A stretch of 64,000 nt of DNA from Lentisphaeria bacterium (lineage in GTDB: Bacteria > Verrucomicrobiota > Lentisphaeria > Victivallales > UBA1829). Below are positions 1,130-62,250 of the stretch, in pieces. Below the pieces are notes generated by a model. The model did no database searches and was not told the origin of the DNA. It saw only the letters and a program-made list of their open reading frames with translations. Numbering within the stretch: position 1 is the first letter of the stretch; each line of letters opens with the position of its first letter. A program made the position numbers and the translations under genes. Where the stretch lies: NCBI GenBank assembly GCA_017503545.1, contig JAFVSW010000335.1:171-64170 (forward strand), written 5' to 3'.

Positions 1130-2188
1130 ATGGAAAGAGGCGAAAAAACAGAAATTGTATTGGAATATCTCCGGAATGGGATCGCATCCGGCAAATGGAC
1201 TCATGCTCTGCTGCCAAAGGAAATGGATCTGGCAAAGCAGTTCGGCGTTGCCAGGGGAACAGTCAGACGGGCATTTGACCATTTGGTATCGGAAGGACTT
1301 GTAAGCCGTAAAAAACATTACGGTACAGTCCTGAACGAACAAACATTAAAAAGTCATTGTATCTGTTCCGTTATACGTGCCAGCGGTCATTTCTACAGTG
1401 ATATATTTGATTCGTTGCAAAAAAAAATTACCCGGAACGGTTACCGGATGCAGCATATTGATGTATATGGCTATGATAAACCGAAAATGCGGAAACATAT
1501 ATTGCGCGGGGTCAATCACCTGTTATCTCTCCCGAATGCAGATAAATTTATTCTGGATGGCTATATTTTCAACGATTACCCCCGTTACAGTGATATATTA
1601 AAGAAAAAACCGGTATTCTTTGATTTTTTTGACAATATCCCACCGGACAATGTCACAGGGGTATTGATTGATTATGAGGAAGCCGGAAAAATCGGGGCAA
1701 AATATTTGTTACAGGCTGGCTGCCGCCATCCCTTATTGATTCTGGGAGACAATCCGGCGGTAAAAAAACGCTATACACCGGAATGTTTTGCAAAACACAA
1801 AGTAAAACAATTTATCAATGGTTATTCAGAAGTGCTGAAGCAAAATGGATTTGATCCGATGTTATACATCTATTATTCAACTCTTGATAAAAAAAGCATA
1901 CTGGATCAACTGTATGAAATCTTCTCCACGCCGTCATGCCGTCCGGACGGGATCTTTGCTGATAGTGACACCTTTATGGTTCGCATTCTGCGCATAGCAA
2001 CCGAATGTGGTTATACACCCGAACACCTGGTCGGCTGCTATGATACCCCATGGAGCCGCGGAGATGGTGGTTTTACTTTTCCAAGTATACGCATTCCTGC
2101 AGAAGTTTGTGCGGAAGAATTACTGAATCAGGTTATGCTGCCGCCCCATTTACGAAAGAATATTTTTATAAAACCGGAAACTTTATAA
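1130..2188 (+). CDS. GntR-wHTH + LacI-type sugar-binding domain regulator (AraR-like)
   Basis: N-terminal LPKEMDLAKQFGVARGTVRRAFDHLVSEGLV (GntR HTH). C-terminal periplasmic-binding-fold features (DYEEAGKIGAKYL, PDGIFADSD, LVGCYD). Confidence 0.85.
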   Translation: MERGEKTEIVLEYLRNGIASGKWTHALLPKEMDLAKQFGVARGTVRRAFDHLVSEGLVSRKKHYGTVLNEQTLKSHCICSVIRASGHFYSDIFDSLQKKITRNGYRMQHIDVYGYDKPKMRKHILRGVNHLLSLPNADKFILDGYIFNDYPRYSDILKKKPVFFDFFDNIPPDNVTGVLIDYEEAGKIGAKYLLQAGCRHPLLILGDNPAVKKRYTPECFAKHKVKQFINGYSEVLKQNGFDPMLYIYYSTLDKKSILDQLYEIFSTPSCRPDGIFADSDTFMVRILRIATECGYTPEHLVGCYDTPWSRGDGGFTFPSIRIPAEVCAEELLNQVMLPPHLRKNIFIKPETL

Positions 2189-2209
2189 ACAAATCAGGAA
2201 AGGATCACT

Positions 2210-2962
2210 ATGAGAAAACATTTTACACTCATCGAACTGTTGATCGTAATTGCCATCATCGCAATATTGGCTGCCATGCTGCTTCCTGCGCTGCAATCCT
2301 CCAAAGGGCAAGCCAAAAAGATCAATTGCATCAGCAACATGAAACAAGTCTGTTTGGCGGCAAACAATTACGGTGCAAACAACAATGATTATCTTCCATC
2401 CGCTTCAAAACATGGAGTATACGCAAGCTATAATTGTCCCTGGTATCAGTTGATCGAAGGAAAATATCTTGGGAAAGATGTGGCAGCATGCCCGGCAGAT
2501 AAAGATTACAGGGTATTTTATAACTGGAATAAATTTACGGATATGCAAAGCAGATGGACCGATTTCGGAAAGATCACATACGGCTGGGAACGATCTGCCG
2601 GATATTGGGTCAATAATACGAATAAAACAATCTATGCGATCCGCCAATCCAAACTGAAACGCCCTTCCATTGTCGGAATCATATATTGTACCGGCGGGAC
2701 AGCAAAAACTTATAAAATATACGGTTATGACAGTTACAGTACCAATTTGGATGCCAGTCTCGGGCTATTCAATGTAGAAGTCGCATTTCCACGTTGGGAT
2801 ACCGTTCTGGCAAATCATAAAAGAGATTTGCTGGTAGGTTTTGCAGATGGAAGTGCCAGGAATCTCGGTAAAATGGTTCCCATGTCAACATGGCAAGAAA
2901 TGTATAATCATTTCTCCAAGAGAGGTTTACTGATCCGCCATTCAGATATATACAACAAATAA
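2210..2962 (+). CDS. Prepilin-type N-terminal domain / DUF1559-like protein with H-X9-DG motif
   Basis: [36 protein letters not shown], and C-terminal [12 protein letters not shown]. Confidence 0.9.
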
Positions 2963-2980
2963 TACAAGGATTTTGAAATC

Positions 2981-60386: not shown

Positions 60387-60410
60387 TACAAATAACCTTT
60401 CATTTGTACT

Positions 60411-61145
60411 TTATTTATTGGGCCACCAGGCGGAAACTTCACGTTTGCTGTATTCCTTGATCTTATAAAATGCAGATTTTGCTCCAATCACTTTTACGTT
60501 ACTGACATGTCCGTCAAACATCAGAACATTGGTTGATTTTGTATGCCACGCATATACCTGCCTTGTATTAAGGTGATCATAAAAGAAATTGCTGGGCATT
60601 TTTACAGATGTATCATAGCTGTCCGCCATAAAAATAAAACGGGCAGGTCTTTTTACTTGCCCTTGTTTCCACAATTTCTTTTTGCCATAAGTAATATCTT
60701 CAAAACTCAACGAAAAATTCACTCCATATACAAGAGCGTTATATGCATAATAATTTCCATCTTTCCTGGTCTTATCGGCCGCTGACGGACACACAAAATT
60801 GCTTACTTTTTTGTAAAAAGAGGGATTCTCTTTCGAGTAACCCAAATACCATAACACCCAATTGTAACTGTTCTGGATATTTCTTTCAATGGAAGCCTGA
60901 CTCTGTGTCACGTTGGTCCCCAGAGTGTAACTGATGGAATGACTCAGAATCCAGTCATTGTAATCGTCCGTATACGCTCTCATCATGAATGCTATCTGAC
61001 GGAGCTTGTTGGAACAGTCGGTAACTTTTACTCTTTCTTTGCTCGCGCTTAACGCCGGAAGCAGCATCGCCGCCAATATCGCAATGATTGCAATGACGAC
61101 CAGAAGTTCGATGAGTGTAAAACGGGAGTGTTTTTTTTCTTTCAT
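60411..61145 (-). CDS. Prepilin-type N-terminal domain / DUF1559-like protein with H-X9-DG motif
   Basis: [50 protein letters not shown]. Confidence 0.92.
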
Positions 61146-61164
61146 GAGTGAATCCTTTTGTTTT

Positions 61165-62250
61165 TTATTTGGTTATATCATTTTTTATCAGATTTTCAAG
61201 ATTGATCTTGGCAGTGCTGTCCCCAAGATGCAAATTCACCGGCAACTCCAATTGCGGCGGAGGTCCGCTGATTTCTCCCGAGGCGATCTCTTTCAGCAGA
61301 GATAATACCGTTTTGCCGAATAACGGAGATACCAGAGAAACAGATGATAATGTCGGTGTGACCAGCAATGAACCGCAATCAAAACCTAGCACAACAACGT
61401 CCTGCGGAATACGCTTCCCCAGCAATCGCAGATGTTGATACAAAAGAATGGCAATATAGTCTGAATAACAGAAAATCGCTTCCGGTTCTTTTGTTTTGAC
61501 CATGTTGCGAATATATTCCCCGTCATAAAAATCCGGAATATTGCAGACCATTTCCGCAGCTTCTGTCAATCCTCTTTGCTGTAACAACCCGGAAAAATCG
61601 GCTTTCGTGATCCCGATCCGCTGACCGGATCTTTGATCATCTGAAATCAAAGTCATGATTCTGCGGAATCCCAATGATACCAGATAATCAAAACCCAAAA
61701 GCCACGCTTTTTTCATATTGACTCCCACGCTGGGGAAATAATCCGTAATCGTATTGACTTCATCCTCACGGCAATAAACTGCCGGAAGGCCACTCGCACG
61801 AATAACTTGAATGAATGGCTCATCGCCGGATATAGCCGCTCCGAAAAATATGATCCCGCAGTATGTCTCCGAAAGTTTCGCCGGATCCTGCAACAAATGT
61901 AACCCAAGTGTATCATAACGCAGATTCTGTTCCCGACATGCCGCTTCAAGATATGTCAACTCTCGCATTTTCCGGTCACAATGACCTTGTGTAAAATCAG
62001 AACAGACAATAAGAAGTTTTTTCGGCTTATCTCTGGTGATCCGGGTCCCGTAATAATGGGACCGTGTGATCAATCCTTCTTTCTCCAAACGTCTTAATGC
62101 CGCACGGAGGGTAACACGGGAAACCTCAAATTCTTTACAGAATTCAGGCTCCGAAGGAAATTTGCCATCGGTTACCTGTCCACTGTTGATCTTTTCCAGA
62201 ATACAACGGTAGACATAATCTTTCTTTAATTCTCTGTCAAAGTTAGCCAT
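61165..62250 (-). CDS. GntR-wHTH + LacI-type sugar-binding domain regulator (AraR-like)
   Basis: [55 protein letters not shown]. Confidence 0.9.

Follow-up and report, generated by a model that had tools for sequence, protein, structure and literature searches.

A stretch of 64,000 nucleotides (nt) from a Lentisphaeria bacterium (GenBank assembly GCA_017503545.1, contig JAFVSW010000335.1, positions 171 to 64,170 of the forward strand), hereafter called the window, was analyzed for three units that contain prepilin-type genes. In the original prediction, these units were described as one cassette repeated three times, in which a sugar-sensing GntR regulator and a pilin-like H-X9-DG protein accompany secreted glycan enzymes. 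The open reading frame (ORF) listing and the Pfam and NCBIfam scans placed three co-directional units at the predicted positions, each composed of a GntR regulator gene, a prepilin-type gene, and genes for exported and cytoplasmic sugar enzymes. As an architecture, this observation was confirmed across the source genome and its lineage.

Three regulator-prepilin-enzyme units

Unit 1 lies on the plus strand. It starts with a regulator gene (1130..2188), the product of which has a GntR winged-helix domain (PF00392, 4.8e-13) and, by its predicted fold, an effector domain of the LacI/GalR/AraR type. The next gene (2210..2962) encodes a prepilin-type protein of 250 amino acids (aa) with an H-X9-DG motif near the C-terminus. 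It is followed by genes for two exported beta-helix proteins with signal-peptide-like N-termini. The first of them (2981..4630; 549 aa; PF12708, 1.1e-15) is GH28-related and rhamnogalacturonase-like, and some of its relatives are named 'glycosyl hydrolase family 28-related' in source records. The second (4640..5866; 408 aa) matches the same family at 1.3e-15. The SSS symporter that had been claimed upstream of the unit was identified as the 3' part of an SSF symporter gene (2..868, plus strand; PF00474, E 4.6e-10 over profile positions 293-406; weak panF/Na-symporter matches), which is cut by the start of the window and contig (G000:C352:1-339, G000 being the source genome and C352 the contig of the window).

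Units 2 and 3 are encoded on the minus strand. Unit 2 consists of a 438-aa regulator with a GntR helix-turn-helix (HTH) domain (51208..52524; PF00392, 8.9e-8), an exported 609-aa protein with a signal-peptide-like N-terminus and no family match (49099..50928), a prepilin-type protein of 256 aa as called, the leader of which may be shorter (48323..49093), a cytoplasmic conserved hypothetical protein of 411 aa (47064..48299), and a D-2-hydroxyacid dehydrogenase family enzyme (46009..46962; PF02826, 3.7e-35). The label 'deacetylase-like' given earlier to the 411-aa protein was not confirmed: it has no Pfam or NCBIfam match and falls into Atlas clusters of hypothetical proteins, the sole lead being an Atlas cluster with GH57 in 15% of its members. 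In unit 3, a regulator with a GntR HTH and a Peripla_BP_3 domain (61165..62250; PF13377, 3.5e-21; PF00392, 1.4e-12) precedes a 244-aa prepilin-type H-X9-DG protein (60411..61145) and an exported 954-aa protein with a signal-peptide-like N-terminus and no Pfam family (57522..60386), with Atlas clusters of the GHL10, GH42, and GH2 types (scores 0.85-0.89) as no more than leads. An Amidohydro_2 enzyme follows (56699..57712; PF04909, 2.6e-19 over residues 111-330). Its real start probably lies about 190 nt inside the called ORF, as the first 60 residues look non-coding. The product of the next gene (55648..56679), predicted to be an Ntn hydrolase, resembles the N-terminal domain of GlmS, a class-II glutaminase domain of the Ntn type, only weakly (NF001484, 4.2e-7, far below cut-off). 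The unit is completed by a hypothetical protein of 256 aa without a family match (54872..55642) and a GFO/IDH/MocA sugar oxidoreductase (53686..54819; PF01408, 2.2e-20).

The gaps that flank the prepilin genes were measured as 21 and 18 bp in unit 1, 5 and 23 bp in unit 2, and 19 and 24 bp in unit 3, in agreement with the predicted 5-25 bp. The layout said to be common to the three units is shared by units 1 and 3, whereas in unit 2, which departs from it, the regulator is separated from the prepilin by a 279-bp gap and the 609-aa gene. As predicted, the Pfam scan detected no TonB, SusD, or ABC-importer domain inside the three units. Promoter and terminator scans of the window yielded consensus matches only, among them a promoter-like site upstream of the 609-aa gene (TTGACA-16-TATATT, 51025-50998, 11/12) and one upstream of the unit 3 regulator (TTGACA-17-TATACT, 62324-62296, 11/12); the Rfam scan over the window found no family. 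The number of prepilin genes in the window (three per 64 kb) is close to the roughly 2.3 expected by chance from 144 such genes per 4.06 Mb; the layout, in which they are paired with regulators and glycan enzymes, is not random.

The GntR winged-helix domain is common to all three regulators. The description of the unit 3 regulator as GntR/LacI was borne out by its two Pfam domains. In the case of unit 1, the GntR part of the same description was found by Pfam, and the LacI part, without a Pfam match beyond the HTH, was matched by the predicted fold only. The AlphaFold2 (AF2) model of this protein (predicted local distance difference test, pLDDT, 74), based on an alignment that contained Peripla_BP_3 paralogues, matches the CcpA and LacI structures. 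Its comparison with the effector domain of Bacillus subtilis AraR (3tb6_A) gave an E value of 3.7e-10 and TM values of 0.55/0.66, and its HTH matches that of AraR 4egy. AraR combines a GntR HTH with a LacI/GalR-type sugar domain, as does the unit 3 regulator according to Pfam and the unit 1 regulator according to its model; the effector domain of the latter differs from that of AraR in that the identity is at most 16%. For unit 2, predicted to encode a GntR/solute-binding protein (SBP) fusion, the GntR HTH was found, and the C-terminal domain has no Pfam or PDB sequence match. The HTH is all that this regulator has in common with the other two.

The three window prepilins score above the cut-off of the class III signal profile (TIGR02532, 16.3 bits), with 21.5, 21.2, and 21.6 bits for units 1, 2, and 3. 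They are 33-35% identical to each other, share an invariant 23-residue N-terminal helix, and all have the C-terminal DG. The proposed combination of a constant helix with a C-terminal H..DG motif was thereby found in the sequences, and the TIGR04294 profile is exceeded by only one of them (60411..61145, 19.2 bits against a cut-off of 19), the other two not being listed at E 0.01 or better. PF07596 (SBP_bac_10) remains below its gathering score of 23.3 in two of the proteins (21.2 bits in unit 2, and 21.4 bits) and has no match in the third; many relatives do carry it. The window prepilins thus have the architecture and motif of the DUF1559/H-X9-DG family (PF07596, TIGR04294) of the Planctomycetes-Verrucomicrobia-Chlamydiae (PVC) bacteria but reach its curated cut-offs in part: TIGR04294 in one of three, PF07596 in none. 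Relatives of the unit 1 prepilin are named 'type II secretion system protein', 'prepilin-type ... H-X9-DG', or 'DUF1559' by their sources, and whole-length relatives or orthologues at 39-97% identity can be aligned with it over the head. Its best NCBIfam match is GspG (8.3e-9, below cut-off). Against the GspG equivalog TIGR01710, which has a cut-off of 88.85 bits, the three window prepilins score 35.6, 19.4, and 28.4 bits, and they are 244-256 aa long versus about 134.

Prepilin genes across the genome and the lineage

The source genome (4.06 Mb in 353 contigs, 95.8% complete) was represented by 3093 genes from our own codon-usage ORF caller. Prepilins were recognized by a regular expression for the helix and signal peptides by a crude heuristic. 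The expression found 144 prepilin-like genes, and in a profile search of the genome with TIGR02532, 150 matches were scored among 189 candidates. A co-directional gene stands upstream of 110 and downstream of 126 of the 144 prepilin genes (median gaps of 29 and 27 bp), and only nine adjoin another prepilin gene. Assembly breaks are not enriched at these genes: a contig end is found within 300 bp of 23 of the 144, compared with 507 of all 3093 genes.

The association with regulators was strong. Directly downstream of 28 of the 64 GntR-HTH genes there is a co-directional prepilin gene, against a background of 110/2769 (4%; odds ratio (OR) 24.9, p=6e-24), and a prepilin occurs within three genes of 46/64 GntR genes versus 490/2820 others. 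AraC regulators are associated more loosely and mostly in divergent orientation (25/65 with a prepilin within three genes; OR 3.0, p 1e-4). In three of the GntR genes, with ORFs of about 880-896 aa, the HTH seems to be joined to a body that resembles GH38 alpha-mannosidase (L028:4459-7098 on G000:C215, G000:C294:3896-4081, and C217:1517-1699). One of them heads a run of genes with a prepilin, and the fusion may be a regulator with an enzyme-derived sensor domain.

Runs of co-directional genes that do not touch a contig end were treated as complete, and 63 of them contain a prepilin gene. It is the first gene in 24 and the second in 30 of these runs, and it never stands alone. Prepilin runs average 4.5 genes, compared with 2.35 for other runs, and contain 552 of the 3093 genes. 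Their partners were tallied by us in 57 complete runs outside the window, with 199 non-prepilin genes and Pfam matches at E 1e-5 or better. In 41 of the 57 runs, one or more carbohydrate-active domains were found. Glycoside hydrolase (GH), polysaccharide lyase (PL), carbohydrate esterase (CE), or carbohydrate-binding module (CBM) type domains are present in 67/199 partners: DUF4838; GH2, 3, 4, 5, 16, 20, 29, 32, 36, 38, 42, 63-like, 106, 123, and 127; PL8, heparinase II/III, BNR_2, Laminin_G_3, CBM9, CBM4_9, GDSL, AXE1, and PIG-L. Sugar-catabolic families (GFO, AP_endonuc_2, Aldolase_II, PfkB, 3-keto-disaccharide hydrolase) account for 15 partners and GntR, LacI, AraC, and IclR regulators for 18. 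The remaining partners are four type II secretion system (T2SS) core proteins, 35 proteins of other families, and 60 without a family, many of them 600-1100 aa long. Of the 45 DUF4838 genes, prepilin runs contain 30, compared with a share of 13.8% for non-prepilin genes as a whole (OR 13.4, p 3e-16), and 24 of the 45 are directly downstream of the prepilin. For GFO/IDH/MocA genes, the fraction is 18/56 genome-wide (OR 3.0). Membrane proteins are few in these runs; among them are small Imp-YgjV inner-membrane proteins, which in two neighboring prepilin runs directly follow DUF4838 enzymes (L033:4376-4612 and L035:3880-4425 on G000:C233).

Signal-peptide-like N-termini were predicted for 51 of the 73 large genes directly downstream of a prepilin, versus 75 of 486 large genes outside the runs. 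This, together with a single canonical T2SS operon in the genome and the GspG-like and 'type II secretion system' annotations mentioned above, would be expected if the prepilins were GspG-like pseudopilins acting as adaptors that help a shared T2SS to export the adjoining large hydrolases or to hold them on the surface. We consider this explanation unlikely. The best GspG score (35.6 bits) is far from the cut-off, and the prepilins are about 100 residues longer. Ten of 60 complete runs contain no exported protein of at least 300 aa, and these include GH38/GH106, GH3, and GH2 enzymes that lack signal peptides. The number of such exported proteins per run varies (none in 10 runs, one in 28, two in 14, three in 6, and four in 2), while 57 of the 60 runs have exactly one prepilin, whatever the exported-enzyme count. 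Moreover, the prepilins upstream of DUF4838 enzymes (20 members) do not form a group on the prepilin tree, as 126/1000 shuffles cluster as well. This tree, computed with FastTree from 84 heads and compared with clusters of the downstream protein, is poorly resolved, and its association with those clusters is weak: 60 changes against a shuffle mean of 63.4, the count of 60 being reached by 0/1000 shuffles in one test and being the minimum of a separate 300-shuffle test. A single prepilin per run and the scattering on the tree argue against enzyme-specific secretion adaptors and fit a role tied to the substrate of the operon. Both results are equally compatible with little specificity.

The arrangement was also found outside the source genome. 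In G006, a five-contig genome from another family of the same order (150 of 193 prepilin candidates scored), a prepilin N-terminus follows on the same strand, 0.87-1.42 kb downstream, in the case of 37 of 67 GntR HTH matches, whereas random placement, repeated 500 times, gave 1.1 on average and never more than 5. We further compared 80 related loci from named metagenome-assembled genomes (MAGs), in which 49 of 65 upstream neighbors (at least 150 aa) and 23 of 64 downstream neighbors (co-directional and large) were examined. Upstream, 13/49 were co-directional GntR/LacI-type regulators and four divergent AraC regulators; downstream, 12/23 were CAZyme-like (carbohydrate-active enzyme) or sulfatase genes. 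The regulator-prepilin-hydrolase order is concentrated in Lentisphaerota among these loci, and outside this phylum it was seen as LacI-prepilin-GH10 in one Phycisphaeraceae locus and as AraC/prepilin-GH5 in one Verrucomicrobia locus. The most similar prepilin loci and proteins belong to Victivallales and Lentisphaeria MAGs and to Victivallis vadensis. Larger genomes of the order contain from 121 to at least 150 prepilin matches (up to 305 candidates), smaller ones 4-72, and 27 genomes of other families of the phylum 0-43.

The narrow range of distances in the G006 pairs, like the 19-21 bp between regulator and prepilin in units 1 and 3, is what one would expect if the pilin head sensed an extracellular polymer and the dynamics of the filament fed back on the adjoining regulator. 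The regulators, which are soluble AraR/LacI-type proteins with a sugar pocket of their own, and the prepilins, which have no signaling domain, make such a signal input highly improbable.

Sequence nearly identical to the window was found in sequencing runs recorded as gut metagenome (animal, by record). One RNA-seq library of this kind contains 57% of the sampled words of unit 3, and its contigs (98-99% identical) span both junctions of the unit 2 prepilin, the one with the 411-aa gene and the one with the 609-aa gene. These contigs document presence in an RNA library; they are not proof of transcription and give no expression levels or transcript ends. Their cover is low over the unit 3 prepilin (bin 60325-60905), an observation that carries no weight for the same reason. 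Another contig (run X1) joins positions 57622-58577, 53253-53374, and 46787-47035, skipping unit 2 and part of unit 3, and the skipped parts are present in other contigs of the same library. It could reflect strain-level presence or absence of whole cassettes, or it could be a chimera.

Other parts of the window were annotated as well. Beside unit 1, positions 5967-10813 encode two exported proteins, an AXE1-family esterase and a 161-aa protein whose N-terminus is similar, together with a GH2 enzyme and a divergent AraC regulator. At 11075-18112, a bacterial alpha-2-macroglobulin gene (1621 aa) is followed by a gene for a PBP1C-type transglycosylase/transpeptidase, a usual gene pairing that is unrelated to the prepilins. 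An interspersed repeat of about 216 nt was found at 62357-62572 and about 40101-40313. The genome has at least 94 copies of at least 180 nt with 70-97% identity, 84 of them intergenic, and the repeat folds as one extended hairpin (-84.6 kcal/mol). It has the appearance of a MITE- or REP-like element (miniature inverted-repeat transposable or repetitive extragenic palindromic element), and it explains a depth spike of about 1770x in the RNA-library contigs. A link between the repeat and the prepilin runs was rejected (18/94 copies versus 91/391 intergenic gaps).

Conservation, fold, and cleavage site of the prepilins

The alignment of the 144 paralogues shows a strictly conserved N-terminus and a variable head. 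F1 and E5 are present in 144/144 sequences, P22 in 99%, and two Cys residues in 97%. The H-X9-DG motif occurs in its strict form in 62 and in a loose form in 87 of the paralogues, and in the aligned columns, H, D, and G are conserved in 93%, 81%, and 80%. Several aromatic positions and the H..DG hairpin are kept while the loops vary. The globular head is enriched in Tyr (1.8-fold), Asn (1.7-fold), Trp (1.5-fold), and Ser (1.5-fold); the description of the variable middle as aromatic-rich holds for Tyr and Trp but not for Phe. The first 16 residues are identical in 99/144 paralogues, whose nucleotide identity over this part is 78.6%, compared with 76.6% expected from the codon usage of the genome. 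Since synonymous sites are random while the residues are identical, the helix is kept by selection at the protein level, which fits a shared partner, and gene conversion was rejected as the cause of the invariant N-terminus.

A profile search of the PDB with 59 paralogues gave 18 matches, all of them type IV pilins or GspG and all over the helix, with profile position 17 (F1) aligned to residue 1 of the mature pilins. The AF2 model of the unit 3 prepilin (60411..61145; pLDDT 72) consists of a long helix and a beta-sheet, with high pLDDT in the helix and the H..DG hairpin. Compared with VIA-align, the 16 best rows for this model were all type IV pilins or pseudopilins, at Z values of only 4.4-2.6; Foldseek found no PDB match at E 1e-3 or better. 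A complex prediction for the head of the unit 1 prepilin and the adjoining beta-helix enzyme gave no verdict and no support, and it was not used either way.

The conservation bears on the possibility that the prepilins are a generic supply of filament subunits, that is, members of an abundant family any of which, placed in any inducible operon, raises the subunit pool, with heads that vary by drift or under phage or immune pressure. The weak link between prepilin phylogeny and the neighboring enzyme family, and the chance-level number of prepilin genes in the window, are as this explanation would have it. It leaves unexplained why the two Cys residues, the aromatic positions, and the hairpin are kept while loops vary, why relatives of the unit 1 prepilin at 39-97% identity remain alignable over the head, and why there is one copy per run, strictly in first or second position. 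We therefore regard it as very unlikely.

The residue before F1 is anomalous. The canonical prepilin peptidase cleavage site has Gly, rarely Ala, at position -1, and this residue is normally required. In the source genome, Gly occurs there in only 14/144 paralogues, leaving 130 without it, and in the window prepilins it is replaced by H, F, and R. The pattern recurs in Lentisphaerota relatives (Gly in 3/31, absent in 28/31), where almost any residue can stand at this position, whereas relatives from Verrucomicrobiota, Planctomycetota, Kiritimatiellota, and Omnitrophota mostly keep Gly or Ala. A single Peptidase_A24 gene was found in the genome (G000:C33:6901-7245). Either the specificity of the peptidase has shifted in this lineage, or the prepilins are not cleaved. 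In the second case, they would be bitopic inner-membrane proteins with a periplasmic head that binds oligosaccharides, passes them to transporters, or acts as a sensor or as a chaperone of the enzymes from the operon. The Pfam identifier of DUF1559, SBP_bac_10, would suit such proteins, as would the near absence of transporters from the runs: only 1/60 complete runs encodes a protein with at least six predicted transmembrane segments. However, a simple membrane anchor would give little reason for a buried Glu5 to be kept, along with F1 and P22, by selection on the protein in essentially all paralogues, and the model and the profile resemble pilins rather than periplasmic binding proteins. Gly at -1 is missing even from the short GspG in the true T2SS operon, which has Cys there, so a shift in peptidase specificity is probable, and the uncleaved state appears distinctly unlikely.

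Filament machinery and a candidate role in glycan acquisition

The prediction that a shared machine is encoded elsewhere in the genome was supported by a T2SS operon, T2SSE and PilT ATPases, secretins, and a prepilin peptidase. The canonical operon (L007) comprises GspC, the secretin GspD, GspE, GspF, a short pseudopilin (GspG), and four small genes. The cut-offs are exceeded in the source genome by 13 T2SSE, 9 secretin, and 5 PilT-family matches (two PilT pairs in tandem). Type IV filament parts are unusually many for a 4-Mb genome and are spread over contigs C52, C101, C243, C206, C8, C326, C216, C158, and C277. As to transport, 13 ABC permease and 4 SSF matches were obtained. The TonB-dependent receptor (PF00593) has no match in this 95.8% complete genome, and SusD was not searched genome-wide. 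The receptor was likewise not found in any of the 14 sampled genomes of the order (the source genome and 13 others), while it is present in 24/27 genomes of other families of the phylum.

With these components, the prepilins of the units may be operon-specific and substrate-specific subunits of a shared type IV filament for glycan capture or uptake. This is a tentative reading that, judged from sequence, has in our estimate somewhat less than an even chance. Each unit would be a glycan-utilization operon with a private type IV pilin or pseudopilin paralogue as its first structural gene. The invariant helix, with F1, E5, and P22, could allow a common peptidase, platform, and set of ATPases to insert the paralogues into one filament, and the variable, disulfide-braced head, rich in Tyr, Trp, and Asn, would recognize the glycan that is degraded by the co-transcribed hydrolases. 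Gene order and domain content suggest that an AraR-type GntR, LacI, or AraC regulator turns on pilin and enzymes together once it senses the sugar. More speculatively, the filament might capture the polymer, and its PilT-driven retraction past a secretin might bring the polymer to or into the periplasm.

For the substrate-specific pilin reading speak the association found in two genomes, the machine encoded elsewhere, the lack of TonB receptors, and the way the prepilin tracks the operon. Several observations weigh against it, the missing Gly at -1 being one. Glycan genes also occur outside prepilin runs: 15 of the 45 DUF4838 genes do, the AXE1-GH2 cluster at 5967-9896 of the window is a glycan locus without a prepilin gene, and no prepilin motif lies within 1.5 kb of two distant homologues of the unit 1 enzyme, one in G087 and one in G064. 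These two were the only genomes besides the source genome, among 81 of the order, with a match to this enzyme at E 1e-40 or better (31-36% identity). Conversely, 16 of the 57 runs lack a recognizable CAZyme, and some hold housekeeping genes (L009, L027, L045). The head is poorly determined in the model of the unit 3 prepilin (pLDDT 52-76 for residues 70-160), and the Foldseek and VIA-align comparisons of this model showed no resemblance to a lectin or CBM. The gene calls, the prepilin expression, and the signal-peptide calls are our own heuristics. Finally, small genomes of the order with 4-17 prepilin matches are without TonB receptors too, so the loss of SusC-type receptors is not tied to the prepilin expansion. 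The absence of these receptors is one clade-level trait and not independent support.

Comparison with known systems shows what is shared and what differs. Like type IV pilins and GspG, the prepilins have an FTLIELL hydrophobic helix with F1, E5, and P22, a tentatively pilin-like alpha-beta model, and the machinery in the genome. Type IV pilins and GspG, however, are about 130-160 aa long, are grouped with their machine, and carry Gly at -1, whereas the present proteins are about 240 aa long, occur one per catabolic operon, and, with 144-189 paralogues per genome, mostly lack this Gly. With the SusC/SusD polysaccharide utilization loci (PULs) of Bacteroidota they share, per locus, one regulator, one non-catalytic extracytoplasmic component, and matched enzymes, in dozens of loci; in contrast to those PULs, the dedicated component is a pilin-type protein, and the units contain no SusD or ABC domains.

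That PVC bacteria may acquire glycans by means of pili has already been published as a concept, as the accessible parts of PMC5394234 and PMC13174399 show. Pili-like fibers of Planctomycetes bind gold-labeled dextran, and the authors speculate about uptake via crateriform structures (PMC5394234, accessible part). According to the portions available of PMC13174399 and PMC12418764, pili are among the components of the mucin utilization loci (MUL) of Akkermansia, and conservation of MUL2 extends to aquatic Akkermansiaceae, which take up labeled fucoidan. We compared MUL2 (Amuc_1102 = MUL2A, PilM-like MUL2B) by its published description only (PMC13174399, in excerpt). As far as these excerpts go, pili or pili-like fibers are implicated there in glycan binding or internalization, in relatives that store polymers in the periplasm; those systems are one or two dedicated loci, or fibers of unspecified composition, whereas here a distinct paralogue belongs to each operon. 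Cultured Lentisphaerae respond to laminarin with an up-regulation of 'secretion system-related' genes and with filamentous particles, and they lack ExbB (PMC11361711, accessible part). DUF1559 has 68 paralogues in P. limnophila and is called a family of unknown function in the available text of a 2023 essential-gene study (PMC10632474), in line with the original statement that it has no assigned function. Our literature search yielded no description of prepilin genes as a regular part of glycan operons, and in two 2026 preprints on CAZyme gene-cluster organization, the words pilin, pili, and type II secretion were absent. What is new is the systematic placement of prepilin genes behind GntR/LacI regulators and ahead of hydrolases in a Victivallales-type order, which is shown here and which combines pilus-linked glycan acquisition with a PUL-like organization.

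PVC bacteria are major degraders of mucin, plant, and algal glycans. In its widest form, the proposal would be that Victivallales-type bacteria use polysaccharides independently of TonB, by means of more than 100 interchangeable glycan-specific pilin heads on a common stalk, each under its own repressor and retracted by PilT through secretins. This would also give a function to DUF1559/H-X9-DG proteins across the PVC bacteria and identify the dextran-binding fibers of Planctomycetes. We regard this wider form as doubtful, although not implausible. The regulator and the enzymes that accompany each paralogue allow its ligand to be predicted, and therefore the head domains can be screened on matching glycans. 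If the proposal is true, there would be a PUL-like architecture that is invisible to CAZyme-cluster predictors built on SusC/D or ABC markers, and the DUF1559/H-X9-DG prepilins, which are among the largest paralogous families of PVC genomes and an orphan family so far, would gain a directly testable function.

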